The position numbers were made by a program, and so were the translations under genes. Below, piece after piece: positions 221 to 6,070 of a DNA stretch of 6,070 nucleotides. How positions within the stretch are numbered: the stretch's first letter is position 1; every line of letters starts with the position of its first letter. The notes below the pieces were generated by a model. It was not told the origin of the DNA and ran no database searches. It saw only the letters and a list, made by a program, of their open reading frames with translations. This stretch comes from Nanobdellati archaeon (GTDB lineage: Archaea > Nanobdellota > Nanobdellia > UBA10117). Where the stretch lies: the NCBI GenBank assembly GCA_016182015.1, contig JACOYC010000007.1, positions 1-6,070 of the forward strand, given 5' to 3'.

Positions 221-1738
221 CTATGCCACTACTAAAGTTGGTTCTGGCTGGACTGCCAAGCCTTCTTTTGGGCTGTTGTCTGCGGTGCCTGGCCGGGCCA
301 AAAACATCGCATCAATAACACTATCAGTAACTTTGTCTGTGACGCTTGCGTTCCCGTGCCGCATCAAATACTCGCTGGCCAGCCGCTGTATGCAAGCCCG
401 CAGCGAGCCATCCCTGCCAAGGGGCTGGATTTTTTGCTGAAAACTTTTGAAGTAATTAGCAATAAGCCCTTCCTGCGTTGAAACACCTGCCAGCCGCTGG
501 GCAACTTGGACAAGCTTGCTAGCCGGCAGCGCGCTAAATCGCTCCGTGAAAAGCGAGTGGTCGATCTCTTCCAATGTCCTTTCCGTACGAGTATAATCGC
601 TAAAATCACTAATATATTCGTAAACTTCGGCGCGGCGATTTGTGTAATCAATTATTCTGCGATTTCTAAATAGTGTATACGTATCGCGCAACGAATTCTG
701 ATCAGATTCCCTATTATTAGCGTTGATGATAGTATTAAAGTCAAAGTAATTACTATCCGCGCTATCGTGAATGTCACTAACGCCAGAATTAGAAATATAA
801 TATATATTATCCATACCTTCTGAAAAGAGGCTGTTCCTTTTTTTCTTTCGCTGGCCTGCCTCTGCTCTCTCTTTGTCATAAATTTCATTAGTTGTTTTTT
901 CAAATAATATTTTCGCACTGGGTTTGTTTTTTTGTTTCAGTTCTAGTGTGCGGGAATAAATAACATCAAGTGCAATGCACCTTAGGGCATCTTCTTTTGG
1001 GACTAAAATGCGCTGACCCTGCACATCATGCGCGATGCATTTCTCAGCGTCAAAGTTTTGTGTTCTTGAAGCATAACTTCCGGGACAGACATAATAAAAT
1101 CGTTTTATATCAACGCCGGAATCGCTGGCTGTCATCTTCAGCCACAATCCAATTGTTGAGCCGGGTTTATTGAAATGAGCGATGTTAAAAATAATGCTTT
1201 TCCCGTCGTACTGCACAGTCAGGTCGCTGACATTTTTCTCAGACGAACGTGCTATAACCTGGTCAGTTTTCAGGATGTCCAGCGGATTCTGCGCCCGAAT
1301 ATTATTAACTAATAAAATTGTATCTTCCAGATCAAGCTCTGCTTGTTGCCCACTAGACCCTTGCTCATAGGGCTTGTCTTCCAGACAATATTTTTTCTTT
1401 CCATCGGACAGGCCAACACTACCATGGACATCACCAAGCAGGAAAACTGCATCAAACGGCAGGTTAAATTTATTTTTCAGAAATTTTGCGAACAAAAATC
1501 TGTATAGCGCCTTTGTGCCGCAAAATACCTCGCCGAGCTGTTCAACTTCGTGCGGCCATGGAAATAATATACAATTGCCAAACGCGCGCGTGCGGCCCCA
1601 CTCATACTTGAAACCTTCTGTAACTGTTATAACTGCGCTGGCAATGTCTTCGAGAGATTTTCCGGATAAATCAATGCCCTTGGCTTTCTGTTCAAATAAT
1701 TCTAAAGTTTGCTGTGGAACGCTGTCTGGCCATACCAT
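221..1738 (-). CDS. Hypothetical protein, 505 aa, no family recognised
   Basis: The track ORF is 221..1741 (506 aa), but it starts at a GTG. The first ATG is the next codon (1738-1736) and shares its A with the TGA of the upstream ORF (sense GTGATG), which implies translational coupling. The N-terminal ~125 aa show a PD-(D/E)xK-like pattern. Residues ~300-385 are N/D/S/Y/R-rich low complexity. The C-terminal ~120 aa look helical. Confidence 0.8.
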   Translation of the reverse strand: MVWPDSVPQQTLELFEQKAKGIDLSGKSLEDIASAVITVTEGFKYEWGRTRAFGNCILFPWPHEVEQLGEVFCGTKALYRFLFAKFLKNKFNLPFDAVFLLGDVHGSVGLSDGKKKYCLEDKPYEQGSSGQQAELDLEDTILLVNNIRAQNPLDILKTDQVIARSSEKNVSDLTVQYDGKSIIFNIAHFNKPGSTIGLWLKMTASDSGVDIKRFYYVCPGSYASRTQNFDAEKCIAHDVQGQRILVPKEDALRCIALDVIYSRTLELKQKNKPSAKILFEKTTNEIYDKERAEAGQRKKKRNSLFSEGMDNIYYISNSGVSDIHDSADSNYFDFNTIINANNRESDQNSLRDTYTLFRNRRIIDYTNRRAEVYEYISDFSDYTRTERTLEEIDHSLFTERFSALPASKLVQVAQRLAGVSTQEGLIANYFKSFQQKIQPLGRDGSLRACIQRLASEYLMRHGNASVTDKVTDSVIDAMFLARPGTADNSPKEGLAVQPEPTLVVA

Positions 1739-2158: not shown

Positions 2159-2175
2159 CTAATATGAAATATTAG
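2159..2175 (-). terminator. AT-rich hairpin just 3' of tRNA-Asp (possible 3' processing or termination element)
   Basis: CTAATAT-GAA-ATATTAG forms a perfect 7-bp inverted repeat abutting the tRNA-Asp discriminator base (2177). Confidence 0.3.
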
Positions 2176-2176
2176 G

Positions 2177-2461
2177 CGCCTGAGCCGAGATTCGAACTCG
2201 GGTCTGAACCGTTCTGCATGACAACCAAAGTACTTCAGCCGATCGCAGATCGGCTTGCCTTTTCTTTGGGTTGCCGACAAAATCCATTTTGGATTTTGCG
2301 GACACATCTGAACTTTGTTCAGATTGTGCCACGACACCTTTCTTTTTACGACGCAAGAAAAATCCGAAGATTTTTCTGCGCCCAGAAAATGCTTTGCATT
2401 TTCTTGGGAAAGAAAGGGGTTGTGTGACAGGGTTCTATCCTAACCGCTAGACTACTCAGGC
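2177..2461 (-). tRNA. tRNA-Asp (anticodon GUC), intron-containing
   Basis: Exons 2461-2425 and 2211-2177 join to 72 nt: GCCUGAG-UA-GUCU-AGCGGUUA-GGAU-A-GAACC-CUGUCAC-GGUUC-AGAC-CCGAG-UUCGAAU-CUCGG-CUCAGGC-G. Acceptor stem 7/7, T stem 5/5, anticodon stem 5/5; the D stem has two G.U pairs. The 3' trailer is CCU, so CCA is not fully encoded. Confidence 0.9.
2212..2424 (-). other. tRNA-Asp intron, 213 nt, canonical position 37/38
   Basis: C32UGU35 pairs with the intron 3' GCAG. The 3' bulge is AA|C38 and the 5' bulge is C36A37|C. An ACAACC/GGUUGU helix closes the intron, with an extra CAU opposite the 5' bulge, so the BHB is relaxed. The interior is filled with 6-13 bp hairpins and holds no plausible ORF. 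Confidence 0.8.
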
Positions 2462-2492: not shown

Positions 2493-2512
2493 GTTGAGTC
2501 CCGCCCTCAGGA

Positions 2513-2663
2513 TTTTCTTTATCATCCTTTTTCCTTAGCGCCATCGTAGATGGCGCACGGGGGAATCAGGGTGAGCGTCCCAATCGAACGAAGTTCGATG
2601 TGCGGCAAAATCCATTGGATTTTGATTGCAACCTGAAGGGGGCAGAGCCCCCTTCGGGTCCGT
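2513..2663 (-). other. tRNA-Tyr intron 2, ~151 nt, inside the T-loop (about 59/60)
   Basis: The T arm is split: UCAGG-UUCAAA ends at 2664 and U-CCUGA-GGGCGGG-A resumes at 2512. A-runs on both sides make the boundary ambiguous by up to ~4 nt. The interior has the hairpins GAAGGGGGC-TCT-GCCCCCTTC, CAAAATCC-AAT-GGATTTTG, ATCGAAC-TTC-GTTCGAT and GCGCCAT-CTACG-ATGGCGC. I could not draw a clean BHB by eye. Confidence 0.65.
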
Positions 2664-2685
2664 TTTGAACCTGAAACCTTCCGGG

Positions 2686-2723
2686 TTCTGAGCGCATATT
2701 GCTTGCCTAGCGGCAAGTGCTGT
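2686..2723 (-). other. tRNA-Tyr intron 1, 38 nt, at or near 37/38
   Basis: Sense sequence is ACAGCACTTGCCGCTAGGCAAGCAATATGCGCTCAGAA, with an internal hairpin CTTGCC-GCTA-GGCAAG. The 3' end UCAG pairs with C32UG (U35.U mismatch), followed by the bulge AA|C38. The boundary is ambiguous by +/-1 nt. Confidence 0.7.
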
Positions 2724-2783
2724 CTACAGCCAGACGCTCTACCAGGTTGAGCTAGGGCGGGATAGATAGTGCTGCATATTTGG

Positions 2784-2806: not shown

Positions 2807-4213
2807 TTATTCCTTCGTAGAAATCTTTCCAAGCACAGAAACAGTGTTGGATGCAACTGCCTTTGCCTTGCCGTTCTCTGTCTTGAATTTTACGTGCGCG
2901 GCAGGCAACCTAATCGCCCCAACAATACCAAGAGAGGTTCTCAAATCATAAGTCAAAACCCTTTCCTCGCCAGGATATAAAACATCAAACTTCCAGCTTA
3001 GCCTGATGTGCCCGCCTTCCTTCTTTATCACGCTCGGGTTCATTGTACCATAATCGCTGCCCGGTTTTAGCGGCGTGGCAATCACATCTGTAACAGTAAC
3101 GTTCGGCACCTGCTTGCCCGCCAGTGATTTTACAACAAGCTTAACCTTCAGGCTCTTTGGCCCTTTTATTACTGATTTCGTAATGCTAAACTCGGCGCCG
3201 TAATATTTTGATAATGTATAAACGCCGGCGATGAGTAATATTAAAACAACGGCCAGCCATGCGTAAGATATTGTGTAAGCCATGGTTGTGCTCTGGCCGG
3301 GAGAAAGCGAATACTGCCAGCCAGCCACAAATCCGCCGCTGTCACCGCTTAATTTCTCTGCTTCGGGTTTCGAAAAAAAGAACGCGCGCTGCCAAGACGG
3401 AAGCAAAACTGTATGTGTGCCAACCGCATCGATATTGCCTTTGTTTGTCAGCGTGATTGTATATTTTGTGCCGAGGAATGCTCCGGAAGTATCTGTTTTG
3501 GAAACCACATTTTCGGAAGACAAAACCTGAAACCGCTTGCTCTGCTGAGAAACAAGTTTGCCGGCCGAATAAATCGAAACCACATTCTTGTAGTTGCCTG
3601 GCTTTACGTCAGAGTCTATTGTTATGTCTTTCTGCAGAACCAGTTTGGCCTCGCCGGAGGCCAGCTTGCCAATTGTAAAGTCAACCGGCTGGAACAAATC
3701 GCTGCTCAACTTGCCTGTCAGGCCTGCCGCTTCATCCTTGCCGGAATTTTTAACGATCAGATTTATTTTGTAATCGCCAGGCTTTATCTTACTCTCCAAA
3801 TCTATTGAAGAATCAATATGCGGCGGTTCTGTGAGGACAGTTATCTTAACCAGCACCGATGTCTGCACTTTTGGGTTATTGCAGGCCTTTGCAGTCACTT
3901 CAATCGCGTAGGTGCCGGCATAAACATCTGCCGGCGGCGTGATTCTAAGTTCGGCAGATCTTGCGGAATTTGCAGGTATATCTAAAATATAATTATCAAA
4001 GTAGGCTGTCCCCCAGCCTGGCGCCGAAAGGCAGAATCTGTCGAACTTTGCCTGATTATTACCGACTGTAATGCCGTATTTTGCAGAATCTGTGTAAGAA
4101 ACAGCACCGACCACTGCATTTTGCGTCATAACAACATCAGAACCTGCATGCGCGATGGGCAAACCGAGAACAAGTAACAAAAGACTAATGATGATTATGT
4201 GTGGCCAGCGCAT
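2807..4213 (-). CDS. Secreted, membrane-anchored protein with CARDB/Ig-like beta-rich repeats
   Basis: The track ORF 2807..4222 starts at a TTG; the first ATG is at 4213-4211 (MRWPHIIIISLLLLVLGLPIAHA|GS), which reads as a classical signal peptide. Segments such as RITPPADVYAGTYAIEVTAKA, INLIVKNSGKDEAAGLTGKL and YTITLTNKGNIDAVG resemble CARDB/NEW3-type Ig-fold repeats. One TM helix lies at track residues ~316-337 (YTISYAWLAVVLILLIAGVYTL), followed by a K-rich segment and a ~125-aa C-terminal beta-rich domain. Confidence 0.85.
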   Translation of the reverse strand: MRWPHIIIISLLLLVLGLPIAHAGSDVVMTQNAVVGAVSYTDSAKYGITVGNNQAKFDRFCLSAPGWGTAYFDNYILDIPANSARSAELRITPPADVYAGTYAIEVTAKACNNPKVQTSVLVKITVLTEPPHIDSSIDLESKIKPGDYKINLIVKNSGKDEAAGLTGKLSSDLFQPVDFTIGKLASGEAKLVLQKDITIDSDVKPGNYKNVVSIYSAGKLVSQQSKRFQVLSSENVVSKTDTSGAFLGTKYTITLTNKGNIDAVGTHTVLLPSWQRAFFFSKPEAEKLSGDSGGFVAGWQYSLSPGQSTTMAYTISYAWLAVVLILLIAGVYTLSKYYGAEFSITKSVIKGPKSLKVKLVVKSLAGKQVPNVTVTDVIATPLKPGSDYGTMNPSVIKKEGGHIRLSWKFDVLYPGEERVLTYDLRTSLGIVGAIRLPAAHVKFKTENGKAKAVASNTVSVLGKISTKE

Positions 4214-4242
4214 GTTTATCAATTATGTTAGTGAATAATTAG

Positions 4243-4250
4243 TATATAAA
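4243..4250 (-). promoter_or_regulatory. TATA box of the surface-protein gene
   Basis: Sense TTTATATA lies 30-37 nt upstream of ATG 4213. This predicts a near-leaderless transcript starting around 4220. That argues against the TTG at 4222 as the start codon. Confidence 0.5.
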
Positions 4251-4307
4251 TGTTTCTAGATCGCATAATGAGCAATCCACAATGATATATGGTGAGGCTG
4301 CGCAGAT

Positions 4308-4464
4308 TTGTTCCGCACATCGGGATTTGCGGGATTGTTAAATCCCGCTGTTTTTCTTTTTGGGTTCCCAGGAGCCTTTTTCTTTCCAGAGCCGAATGAA
4401 ATTCGGCTTGGCCAAGAAAAATGCCGAAGCATTTTTCTCTGGTTTTAAAAGAAAAAGGGTGCTG
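4308..4464 (-). other. tRNA-Pro intron 2, ~157 nt, inside the T-loop (56-60)
   Basis: CGCAG-UUCAA ends at 4465 and AU-CUGCG-CAGCCUC-A-CCA resumes at 4307. Read without splicing, the local T-loop would be AACAAAU, which lacks U54 and U55. The exact boundary is ambiguous by ~2 nt. It contains the three-way-junction module at 4375-4458. Confidence 0.65.
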
Positions 4465-4484
4465 TTGAACTGCGGTCACACCCA

Positions 4485-4583
4485 TTCTGGTAAAGACATC
4501 TTTTGTGCGATTGAAAATCGCACTTTTCTTTCTTTAGACGCCCAGGAGCGTTTCTTTCTTTTTAAAAGAAAGAAAAGCTGCTG
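4485..4583 (-). other. tRNA-Pro intron 1, 99 nt, at or near 37/38
   Basis: The sense strand starts CAGCAGC and ends CCAGAA. CCAG pairs with U33GG35 (A32.G mismatch), followed by the bulge AA|U38. It contains CTTTTCTTTCTTT...AAAGAAAGAAAAG (+ 4523-4577) and the hairpin GTGCGATT-GAA-AATCGCAC (+ 4505-4523). The boundary is ambiguous by +/-1 nt. Confidence 0.65.
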
Positions 4584-4638
4584 CCCCATGGGCGTAGCCT
4601 ACCAAGCTAGCCGACAGCCCCGCTAAGAATTTATTTAT

Positions 4639-4663
4639 AGCTTTAAAAGTTCTTTTACTATTT
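4639..4663. repeat. 25-bp exact direct repeat, copy A (tRNA-Pro promoter region)
   Basis: AGCTTTAAAAGTTCTTTTACTATTT is identical to 4751-4775. Confidence 0.9.
4641..4648 (-). promoter_or_regulatory. Candidate TATA box of tRNA-Pro
   Basis: Sense TTTTAAAG lies 20-27 nt upstream of G1 (4621), slightly closer than for the other two tRNAs. It sits inside the 25-bp repeat that duplicates the adk 3' end. Confidence 0.4.
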
Positions 4664-4720
4664 GTACAGCCCCCTTTCTTTGGGAAAGAAAGGTGCTCTA
4701 CGAAACCACCAAAGAAACCT

Positions 4721-4739
4721 GTGCGATATTCTATCGCAC
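4721..4739 (-). terminator. Hairpin 8 nt downstream of the adk stop (terminator-like, or a cassette of the intron hairpin family)
   Basis: GTGCGATA-TTC-TATCGCAC has a perfect 8-bp stem. In the adk sense it is followed by AGGTTTCTTTGG. The same stem occurs in tRNA-Pro intron 1 (4505-4523). Confidence 0.4.
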
Positions 4740-4746
4740 TAAATTT

Positions 4747-5457
4747 TTACAGCTTTAAAAGTTCTTTTACTATTTTTTCAGCATCTGCTTTTACGCTACT
4801 AACGTCTTTTTCCGCATTGACTGGTCTAAACGCGGCGGAATATGTTCTGCGCATGCTTTCCACCATTGGCCATGTCTTCTTATCATACTCACGTATCGCA
4901 TTCGCAAACATGTCGTAATTAACATCTTCCTGCCTGATGTAAAGCCCGCCCCCGCAGGCATCACATCTGTCCGCAGTTTTTGGCGGAGAAAACTTAACAT
5001 GATAGACTAAACCGCATGGCCTGCAGCTCCTTCTTCCCTTGGCCCGCTCAAACAATGTATCGTCATTCGCAATGTCAAGGTAAAGCACTGCATCAAAATC
5101 AATCTCCCATTTCATATGTCCGTTCACGCGCTCGAACATCCTTTCGAGAAAATCCAGCTGTCCAGTAGTCCTTGGGTAGCCAACCCAAAAAGCAACCGAG
5201 CCCGGCTTCATTGCAAAAAATTGATGCTCGACAAGGGAATTCATGTACGGATCCGGAGTAAGGCTTCTGTCTGCATCAAAATGCTCTGCGACTTTTCCAA
5301 GCAAAGTCCCGTCGCGCTTGCCTGCCCGCAGCAAATTTCCGGTTGCGATATGCTGCGAGTCCGGTATTTGTTTGAGTAAGTGCTGCAGAACAGTGTCTTT
5401 GCCCGAGTAAACAGCGCCAATTATAACCACATTCTTAACTGGTTTAAGTTCAGCCAC
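4747..5457 (-). CDS. adk: Adenylate kinase, long form with a four-Cys zinc LID
   Basis: Motifs: GAVYSGKDT (P-loop; compare GxPGxGKGT), HIATGNLLRA (compare IStGdlLRa), GYPRTTGQ (compare GfPRTxxQ), LID GRRSCRPCGLVYHVKFSPPKTADRCDACGGGLYIRQEDV (CxxC...CxxC), and IREYDKKTWPMV. The start is GTG at 5457; the next in-frame Met is residue 72, after the P-loop. GAGGT (+ 5463-5467) lies 5 nt upstream. Confidence 0.9.
   Translation of the reverse strand: MAELKPVKNVVIIGAVYSGKDTVLQHLLKQIPDSQHIATGNLLRAGKRDGTLLGKVAEHFDADRSLTPDPYMNSLVEHQFFAMKPGSVAFWVGYPRTTGQLDFLERMFERVNGHMKWEIDFDAVLYLDIANDDTLFERAKGRRSCRPCGLVYHVKFSPPKTADRCDACGGGLYIRQEDVNYDMFANAIREYDKKTWPMVESMRRTYSAAFRPVNAEKDVSSVKADAEKIVKELLKL
4751..4775. repeat. 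25-bp exact direct repeat, copy B (last codons of adk)
   Basis: AGCTTTAAAAGTTCTTTTACTATTT is identical to 4639-4663. Here it encodes the adk C-terminus (...KIVKELLKL). Confidence 0.9.
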
Positions 5458-5489
5458 AGCTTACCTCTAAAAGCAGATAAAACAGTGAC

Positions 5490-5499
5490 TATAAAAAAA
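5490..5499 (-). promoter_or_regulatory. Candidate TATA box / T-run between the kinase gene and adk
   Basis: Sense TTTTTTTATA lies 33-42 nt upstream of the adk GTG and 14 nt downstream of the TAG (5515-5513) of the upstream gene. Confidence 0.45.
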
Positions 5500-5512
5500 T
5501 ATCTGTGCAAAA

Positions 5513-6070
5513 CTAAACGAATTTCCCAACTAAAACATCAATCTTGGAATAAAGCTGCATAAGCGAGCCAGATGCATCAATCACATAATCTGCCTGCGCG
5601 AAAACCCTTTTCAGATGAAACTCTTTTTCCTCCCTTTTTTCTAGAGCGAGGAACTCTGGCCAGTAGGCTGGATCTCCCGGCCGGCCGCGCTTCTTCATCC
5701 GCTCAAAACGAATTTTTGCGGGCGCAGTCACAAATACTAGTTTTGCCTTGTGCTTAAAATATTTTTTAACAACTTTTACATCGGATGCCAAGCGTATGCC
5801 ATCAATGCAAACCTTTTCGTCGCCATCATTCTCTACTTTCTGAATTATCTTTCTTATAAAATAATTTGTCCCGTACTTATTTCTCAGCCGCTCGGAAAGT
5901 TTTTCCAGATTCTTGCGGTTGGAGCGTATGCGCCTTTTTCTTGCCTCAGAGCGGATGTAGTCAGAAACTGTGTGCTTGTGAAATTTATATTTTTTTTCCA
6001 AATATTCGGCAACAGTCCCCTTGCCAGCCCCGATATCTCCAACTAAACCTATGACTGTGCGGATGGCCAT
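5513..6070 (-). CDS. P-loop nucleotide/nucleoside-kinase-like protein (dephospho-CoA-kinase / archaeal UPF0200-like)
   Basis: 185 aa. The ATG falls exactly at the window edge (6070-6068). A Walker A motif, GLVGDIGAGKGTVAEYL, sits at residues 8-24. VCIDGIRLASDV resembles the xIDGvRsxxEv segment of small archaeal NMP-kinase-fold proteins. The P-loop lying so close to the N-terminus supports this ATG as the true start. The specific substrate is not assignable by eye. Confidence 0.8.
   Translation of the reverse strand: MAIRTVIGLVGDIGAGKGTVAEYLEKKYKFHKHTVSDYIRSEARKRRIRSNRKNLEKLSERLRNKYGTNYFIRKIIQKVENDGDEKVCIDGIRLASDVKVVKKYFKHKAKLVFVTAPAKIRFERMKKRGRPGDPAYWPEFLALEKREEKEFHLKRVFAQADYVIDASGSLMQLYSKIDVLVGKFV

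Follow-up and report, generated by a model that had tools for sequence, protein, structure and literature searches.

Introduction

In the Thermoproteales, transfer RNA (tRNA) genes with several introns, introns in the T loop, relaxed bulge-helix-bulge (BHB) splice motifs and homologous introns at different sites have been described (PMC4090602, PMC4033280, PMC8450103). For example, tRNA-Pro(UGG) of Pyrobaculum islandicum carries introns at 25/26, 37/38 and 56/57 (Sugahara 2007/2008, reviewed in PMC4090602), and the archaeal tRNA introns reviewed are 11–129 nucleotides (nt) long, with medians of 12–25 nt (PMC4090602). Among DPANN archaea, disrupted tRNA genes rise across lineages in a survey that took in one Woesearchaeota genome (PMC5829648), and endonucleases of broad specificity have been reported, namely the epsilon2 EndA of ARMAN-2 and the L3-loop alpha4 EndA (PMC3239211, PMC5829648). 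Here we describe a tRNA-Pro(GGG) gene on the minus strand of a 6,070-nt stretch of archaeal DNA (contig JACOYC010000007.1 of assembly GCA_016182015.1), which is referred to as the window at its full length. The gene is interrupted in the anticodon loop and in the T loop, and we consider it very probable that it encodes a functional, cis-spliced pre-tRNA-Pro(GGG) whose two protein-spliced introns of BHB type were enlarged by a spreading structured module.

The locus resembles the multi-intron genes of the Thermoproteales in its several BHB introns, one of them in the T loop, in its relaxed motifs (hBH and HBh', where h and h' are the outer helices of the splice motif) and in an intron number that varies between close relatives. 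It differs from them in four respects: the host is a DPANN archaeon (Woesearchaeota) and not a crenarchaeon, the introns of the window measure 99–213 nt as against the reviewed 11–129 nt, the T-loop site at 58/59 borrows G53 and is absent from the explicit, open-ended position list of the review (PMC4090602), and the introns hold a conserved multi-helix core. Similarly, families of transposed or homologous introns, described in 2010 work cited in PMC4090602 and PMC4033280, find a parallel in the related introns at Pro 37/38, Pro 58/59, the Asp T loop, Tyr and Gly 37/38. In contrast to those families, the shared unit is a structured module set inside a BHB frame that already existed, a further element is nested in it in either orientation, and one copy lies outside tRNA genes next to a 37-nt duplication. 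With the disrupted tRNA genes of DPANN archaea the locus shares its lineage context, the non-canonical and multiple introns, and a setting in which incomplete tRNA sets have been put down to unidentified disrupted genes, whereas the corresponding papers (PMC3239211, PMC5829648) give counts and enzyme types rather than these genes, intron sizes or a shared core. Finally, the tRNA-Trp intron of Euryarchaeota, which contains a box C/D guide RNA, is likewise a long structured archaeal 37/38 intron with a conserved internal RNA. Unlike it, the two Pro introns of the window lack C/D boxes, so no guide function can be proposed; a regular-expression scan of both found neither a C box (RUGAUGA) nor a D box (CUGA). 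The kind of gene is already known and the principle is established elsewhere. What differs here is the intron size, the recurrent 58/59 geometry, the multi-helix core and growth by nested hairpins in either orientation, and a literature search of incomplete coverage found no paper describing these features.

Three exons form a complete tRNA-Pro(GGG)

When three minus-strand segments of the window are joined (4621–4584, 4484–4465 and 4307–4290; Table 1), the resulting 76-mer is accepted by ARAGORN as tRNA-Pro(GGG). Its cloverleaf has an acceptor stem of 7 bp (one G-U), a D stem of 4 bp, an anticodon stem of 5 bp, a perfect T stem of 5 bp (CGCAG/CUGCG), the T loop UUCAAAU, A73 and CCA. The initial annotation of this DNA had proposed exons of 38, 20 and 18 nt around introns of 99 and 157 nt, together with the perfect T stem and the encoded CCA, and all of these hold on the minus strand. 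The CCA is encoded in the window gene and not in its relatives, and may be incidental.

The unspliced gene escapes standard detection. Default ARAGORN called no tRNA in the whole window, and an Rfam scan at E<=1 returned neither a tRNA match nor any other family covering the introns. With long introns allowed, tRNA-Asp was the sole tRNA called by ARAGORN in the window, and once intron 2 alone is removed the program calls the Pro gene with a 99-nt canonical intron. The independent Logan assembly L003 is 100% identical to the window over 4393–5591, a stretch that takes in the first two exons, all of intron 1 and the beginning of intron 2, so that intron 1 and its junctions cannot be put down to misassembly.

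Table 1. Coordinates of the features of the tRNA-Pro(GGG) locus and of related elements (window positions unless a locus is given).
Feature	Position	Strand	Description
Exon 1	4621..4584	-	38 nt, GGGGCUGUCGGCUAGCUUGGUAGGCUACGCCCAUGGGG; acceptor 5' strand, D arm, anticodon stem 5' strand, loop through G37; anticodon GGG
Intron 1	4583..4485	-	99 nt, canonical position 37/38
Exon 2	4484..4465	-	20 nt, UGGGUGUGACCGCAGUUCAA; U38, anticodon stem 3' strand GGGUG, variable loop UGAC, T stem 5' CGCAG, UUCAA (54-58)
Intron 2	4464..4308	-	157 nt, T loop, 58/59
Exon 3	4307..4290	-	18 nt, AUCUGCGCAGCCUCACCA; A59-U60, T stem 3' CUGCG, acceptor 3' CAGCCUC, discriminator A73, CCA (4292..4290)
Nested two-hairpin element	4386..4442	-	57 nt, CCAGAG...CUCUGG; in the loop of P1 of intron 2
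A/T-rich promoter-like element	4632..4649	-	CTTTTAAAGC TATAAATA; -11 to -28 from the mature 5' end; read from sequence
Core module outside tRNA	4671..4745	+	75 nt, between the adenylate kinase gene and the tRNA promoter; weak nhmmer match (E = 0.0034); repeat search, fold
tRNA-Tyr(GTA)	2499-2761	-	introns 2723..2686 (38 nt, 37/38) and 2664..2514 (151 nt, T loop); joined exons accepted by ARAGORN
tRNA-Asp(GTC)	2175-2461	-	single 213-nt intron, canonical position; ARAGORN with long introns allowed
tRNA-Gly(GCC)	L018 ~1290-1615	-	D-loop intron and 37/38 intron with core and 57-nt element; missed by ARAGORN

Orthologs with and without introns

When metagenomes were searched with the opening 22 nt of exon 1, 19 further loci came up, 17 of which parse as tRNA-Pro(GGG). 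These 22 nt are identical in all 19 loci and in L005, a genome of a named relative described below. The orthologs carry from 0 to 3 introns per gene, 12 to 160 nt long, at 20/21, 37/38, 58/59 or 59/60. Six loci are intron-less (L008, L010, L013, L014, L020, L021), six have only a short 37/38 intron of 19–27 nt (L006, L007, L015, L016, L022, L023), three have only a T-loop intron, of 12, 36 and 106 nt (L012, L018, L024), and two have both (L009 with 108 + 160 nt, L017 with 146 + 12 nt). L005 has exons nearly identical to those of the window and three introns, in the D loop (47 nt), at 37/38 (102 nt) and at 58/59 (30 nt). In L004, which carries the closest relative of the adjacent adenylate kinase (ADK), the tRNA-Pro(GGG) gene is interrupted in the same two loops as in the window by introns of only 14 nt (37/38) and 42 nt (T loop). 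Judging by these relatives, in which one and the same gene has 0–3 introns, large intron content is lineage-wide and highly variable.

Every intron boundary in the relatives coincides with one predicted for the window. Compared with the intron-less genes of L013, L014, L020 and L021, exon 3 without CCA is identical at 15/15 positions and exon 2 at 18/20, an agreement that greatly exceeds chance; the joined window product is colinear with the intron-less genes, and its differences from L013 are confined to compensatory anticodon-stem positions. Removal of the inserts therefore restores a canonical cloverleaf colinear with uninterrupted homologs, which is how archaeal BHB tRNA introns are recognized. 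The L004 exons have changed in a compensatory manner as well (acceptor GGGGCCA/UGGCCUC, T stem CUGAG/CUCAG, anticodon stem UACCC/GGGUA). Across 13 distinct spliced ortholog sequences the cloverleaf pairs at 99.6%, with double-sided changes in 9 pairs, 4 of which belong to the five T-stem pairs formed across intron 2. None of 500 shuffles and no slid register comes close.

The locus is also syntenic, with the order p185-(ADK)-tRNAPro-p471. A homolog of p471 follows tRNA-Pro in L005, L009, L010, L013, L014 and L020, the p185 kinase precedes it in L008, L010, L013, L014 and L024, and in L004 and L005 the tRNA gene lies directly downstream of ADK. Because of this synteny the window gene is an ortholog of the uninterrupted genes and no stray copy. 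The existence of intron-less Pro(GGG) genes elsewhere supports the assignment rather than refuting it, because they belong to other genomes and stand at the orthologous locus. Intron-less and differently interrupted orthologs, covariation, BHB motifs and synteny together bear out the three-exon model, the anticodon and both intron positions first proposed from the sequence. When ARAGORN was run on the orthologs, intron-less genes and those with a canonical intron were called tRNA-Pro(GGG), and every gene with a T-loop intron was missed.

Some peculiarities of individual relatives deserve mention. The D-loop intron of L005 (4341–4387, site 20/21) has the central helix CUUG:CAGG with 4/4 pairs, and its T-loop intron (4526–4555) contains a T8 run on the sense strand. 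A run of this kind should be a strong archaeal termination signal. About 10–75 nt 3' of tRNA-Pro, L010, L017 and L024 share a conserved element ..AAUGGGAC(C/U)AGC..hairpin..GCGCnGCCCCA, whose end repeats the T-stem/acceptor 3' end of tRNA-Pro; it is not present in the window and could represent a small RNA or the remnant of a 3' exon. On the minus strand of L011, from ~4215, a Pro(UGG)-like gene with the same 22-nt 5' end has a long D-loop insert that holds a second copy of GGCTAGCTTGGT, which suggests duplication-mediated intron formation or a rearranged gene.

Splice junctions and BHB geometry

Junctions were tested against a BHB with a 4-bp central helix and two 3-nt bulges cut after the second base, flanked by the outer helices h and h'. 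In intron 1 the anticodon stem, lengthened to 7 bp, serves as h', and the bulges read AA^U on the 3' side and GG^C on the 5' side. The junction of intron 2 can be placed in any register from 55/56 to 58/59 with an identical product. Registers 55/56 to 57/58 give at most 2/4 central-helix pairs and were rejected; only 58/59 gives 4/4, by pairing G53-U-U-C56 with GAAC between the bulges AA^C and AA^A. The h helix of intron 2 is GCAC:GUGC (4 bp), which follows an A.G mismatch.

The 58/59 geometry (GUUC:GAAC with AA^N bulges) recurs in L005, L018 and L024. The junction of L024 is unambiguous in the same frame, and its intron ends are near-identical to those of the window (CAGCAC...GUGCGGAACAG). 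L018 and L005 have GAAU instead of GAAC, a change from G-C to G-U, and L005 also has a different h of 7 bp. A second class is formed by the 12-nt T-loop introns of L012 and L017, which are located at 59/60 and have a textbook hBHBh' motif; 59/60 also fits best for the T-loop intron of L004, with a central helix of just 3/4. Overall, among 16 distinct introns the central helix has 4/4 pairs in 11 and 3/4 in 5, where the chance of 4/4 is ~2% per register. The idea that tRNA-Pro and tRNA-Tyr use the same T-loop intron site is right as to the loop and not necessarily as to the phosphodiester, since 58/59 fits best in Pro and 59/60 in Tyr.

Neither window intron has the strict hBHBh' motif with flanking helices on both sides. 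The relaxed forms are found instead, HBh' in intron 1 and hBH with a 3' bulge in intron 2. Such motifs require an endonuclease of broad specificity (PMC4090602), and DPANN lineages possess enzymes of this type (PMC5829648). We infer that the junctions of the window would be cut by a broad-specificity DPANN endonuclease.

A structured core shared by long introns

Both introns are predicted to fold into stable structures. Intron 1 (minimum free energy -31.4 kcal/mol, z = -4.4 vs shuffled controls) forms a P1 hairpin at nt 1–41 and a P3 helix of nt 42–48 with 83–89 around an A-rich linker and the hairpin hp2, followed by the 3' tail UUUA-CCAG-AA. In intron 2 (-56.5 kcal/mol, z = -6.0 vs shuffled controls), the h helix closes a copy of the same P1/hp2 core, and the 3' end is GAAC-AA. 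The two introns share homology, which extends to long introns of relatives; among these, the introns of L017, L009 and L005 are orthologous to intron 1. The core consists of a 5' CAGCAGCC/CAGCACC, the polypyrimidine/polypurine hairpin P1 closing back on GGCUCCUG, a G-rich strand GGGnnUC(C), an A-rich linker AAAAGAAA, hp2, whose stem varies in a compensatory way (GUGCGAU..AUCGCAC / GCGGGAU..AUCCCGC / GUGGGAU..AUCCCAC) and a tail whose pairing with the G-rich strand makes P3. P1 includes CCCAGGAGC read on the other strand. This 9-nt string had been noted as common to the two Pro introns; it does occur exactly twice (0.02 expected by chance), and the copy at 4541–4549 was correctly placed, while the other lies at 4367–4375, one position off. 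It is part of the larger conserved folded core and no isolated motif.

Since MAFFT could not align the 3' strand of P3, this helix was tested sequence by sequence with a script that compares complementarity with shuffles. The complementarity adds up to 64, whereas 1000 shuffles averaged 41 and did not exceed 51. P3 is seen in independent minimum-energy folds of most members of the core family and is weak in intron 2 of the window (4 bp).

Short and long alleles share their ends, both at 37/38 (CGGCAG..GCUCCAGAA in L006 vs CAGCAG...CCAGAA in the window) and in the T loop (CAGCAC..GUGCGGAACAG in L024 vs CAGCAC...GUGCGGAACAA in the window); therefore the core sits apically in an older short BHB intron. 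A core profile matches the introns at Pro 37/38 and Pro 58/59, in L009 the T-loop intron of tRNA-Asp and one tRNA-Tyr intron, and in L018 the tRNA-Gly intron at 37/38. Similar introns at different positions and in different isotypes are what characterizes homologous introns in the Thermoproteales, and because relatives have this core in several tRNA genes and at more than one position, it would spread at the DNA level. In ~126 kb of related DNA searched for core copies, nearly all copies were within tRNA introns. A scan of viral contigs for the intron core motif found nothing. On the plus strand, 4200–4800 contains 8 terminator-like sites (hairpin plus T run) vs 0.9 expected, all of them antisense of intron hairpins after A-rich tracts; they are probably a by-product of the composition of the module and not real terminators.

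A nested element and a core copy outside tRNA genes

The 57-nt element in the P1 loop of intron 2 is 91% identical over its full length to copies in the Pro T-loop intron of L009 and the Gly 37/38 intron of L018, with 91–100% identity between Pro and Gly introns. Its termini are CCAGAG/CTCTGG. Relative to the host tRNA, its orientation in the window is opposite to that in L009 and L018, and this occurrence in both orientations speaks for insertion at the DNA level.

The core copy at 4671..4745 is bracketed by a 37-nt direct repeat (4634–4670 / 4746–4782, 92% identical) that copies the 3'-terminal part of ADK, a region overlapping the tRNA promoter. The segment 4634–4782 resembles an insertion accompanied by a long target duplication, by which both the ADK C-terminus and the tRNA promoter were kept. 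This arrangement may point to DNA-level insertion in the manner of a miniature inverted-repeat transposable element (MITE) and not to movement of whole introns. We tentatively raise the possibility, which we hold to be somewhat improbable, of an undescribed family of small structured elements, comprising the ~75–100-nt P1-P3-hp2 core and the nested 57-nt element, that colonizes the BHB introns of many Woesearchaeota tRNA genes and occasionally intergenic DNA. Insertion into apical loops, in either orientation, would spare the splice motif, and tRNA introns would serve as safe harbours for a MITE-like repeat. If this were the case, the excised introns would be stable, structured RNAs, possibly circular, and might themselves be functional, and many of the tRNAs 'missing' in DPANN genomes would be hidden genes of this kind.

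Proposed splicing pathway and alternative explanations

According to the cis-splicing reading, a precursor of ~330 nt would be transcribed from the A/T-rich promoter just upstream. EndA would cut at the relaxed BHB motifs, between G37 and U38 and between A58 and A59, and an RtcB-type ligase would join the three exons into a 73-nt body (76 nt including the encoded CCA), and both highly folded introns would be set free, probably in circular form. Intron growth would have come about as short ancestral BHB introns gained the structured core (P1, P3, hp2), the T-loop intron receiving in addition the two-hairpin element nested inside the core, and the core would have spread by intron or module transposition, as described for the Thermoproteales. 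Several points weigh against this reading. Both BHB motifs of the window are relaxed. The central helix of intron 1, AUGG:CCAG, has only 3/4 pairs (A.G at 32), in comparison with 4/4 in the orthologous 37/38 introns of L005, L006, L007, L015 and L004, and there is no h helix, as the long hairpin starts at once. Intron 2 takes G53 from the T stem, leaving a weak h', and its 3' bulge is followed by one pair only or, alternatively, is a 5-nt bulge beside a 4-bp T stem. It also contains two sense-strand T5 runs that could attenuate archaeal transcription. Splicing, ligation and the exact cut sites are predicted from sequence, and the genome beyond the 6-kb window may hold a second, intron-less Pro(GGG) copy.

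Imperfect motifs and T5 runs would also fit a decaying or inactive gene, destroyed by hairpin insertions, with Pro(GGG) decoding left to another gene or to tRNA-Pro(UGG/CGG). The module is found in non-tRNA DNA too, so the insertions need not be adaptive, and relatives do well with an intron-less gene. We nevertheless regard decay as very unlikely: the exons are intact and differ from those of relatives by compensatory or G-U changes only, the insertions are located exactly at BHB-competent junctions with the central-helix complement kept (4/4 in intron 2), the locus is orthologous and apparently single-copy, and the long-intron architecture is retained in the divergent L009, L017, L018 and L005, whose p471 is 44–72% identical. 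Even less probable is a split tRNA, in which transcription would stop at intronic oligo-T and restart from internal promoters, the separate transcripts being joined in trans. Stops of this sort could be provided by the T5 runs of intron 2 and by the T8 run of the L005 T-loop intron, and split tRNAs are known in Nanoarchaeum equitans, also a member of DPANN (PMC4090602). However, all three exons lie in order on a single strand, within 332 nt, unlike those of split or permuted genes, and the intron ends pair in cis through the h and central helices. Intron 1 lacks runs of five or more T, no promoter-like box can be read in the sequence before exon 2 or exon 3, and the short-intron and intron-less alleles represent an ordinary cis gene.

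We give next to no credence to self-splicing introns of group I or II or to a protein-coding origin of the region. Group I introns do occur in archaea (PMC6125680), and two mechanically called open reading frames (ORFs) overlap the gene, at 4228–4485 (-) and 4360–4626 (+), with 85 and 88 aa. Rfam gave no group I or group II match at E<=1. Group I introns exceed ~200 nt and group II introns ~400 nt, and introns of 99 and 157 nt are too short for either ribozyme class. The two ORFs, which cross intron hairpins as well as tRNA exons, can almost certainly be dismissed as genes, going by their lack of conservation in orthologs of other lengths: the region measures 73–341 nt among orthologs, its indels are not multiples of three, and it is gone in intron-less alleles, with no ORF conserved.

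The preferred reading, a cis-spliced gene with enlarged BHB introns, bears on several questions. A 2026 survey of 208 complete Nanobdellota genomes described tRNAs 'missing' at the level of orders and considered split tRNAs or gene loss. All three tRNA genes of the window are invisible to default ARAGORN and Rfam, and genes like these offer a simpler and checkable explanation for such gaps. The size range of reviewed archaeal tRNA introns is extended from 11–129 nt to at least 157–213 nt. Orthologs with 0, 1, 2 and 3 introns, together with a mobile shared core, make up a natural series for the gain, enlargement and loss of BHB introns outside the Thermoproteales, and the recurrent 58/59 geometry is a concrete substrate for studying the specificity of DPANN splicing endonucleases.

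Host, promoter and other interrupted tRNA genes

The genes flanking tRNA-Pro encode ADK, a P-loop kinase and a protein with CARDB/NPCBM-like repeats that is either secreted or located in the membrane. Just two close relatives of ADK were found among 5.8 billion proteins. The one with 75% identity is located on NCBI assembly GCA_053535855.1 (L004), and the one with 56% identity on L005, 'Candidatus Woesearchaeota archaeon isolate nzgw42', a metagenome-assembled genome (MAG) and the closest named relative. A scan of a genome collection found no relative with ADK alone and one, a Woesearchaeota MAG, with an alignment of three sequences. Exact look-up of ADK matched short Logan contigs of the same strain and nothing else, and exact-protein look-ups of the 471-aa and 506-aa ORFs gave no match, probably owing to different start codons. 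On this evidence the host, a tiny groundwater archaeon, is a DPANN archaeon of the Woesearchaeota type, because its nearest named relative is a Ca. Woesearchaeota MAG. No EndA gene is present in the 6,070 nt of the window.

The A/T-rich element at 4632..4649 is a putative archaeal TATA box, and comparable A/T-rich boxes are found ~20–35 nt upstream of tRNA-Pro in all orthologs.

The observation that all three tRNA genes of the window carry large introns was confirmed, with 213 nt in Asp, 38 + 151 nt in Tyr and 99 + 157 nt in Pro. The T-loop intron of tRNA-Tyr is made of four unrelated hairpins, has a central helix of 3/4 in its best-fitting register and does not match the core profile of the Pro introns. 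The tRNA-Asp intron scores 21.9 bits against this profile only with two nested-hairpin blocks removed by hand, a suggestive but circular result, and may belong to the same core family in a further expanded form. Similarly interrupted genes were observed in L009, where ~2563–2775 and 3458–3680 hold a tRNA-Asp(GTC) with a core-bearing T-loop intron and a tRNA-Tyr(GTA) with a core-bearing intron, both missed by ARAGORN.

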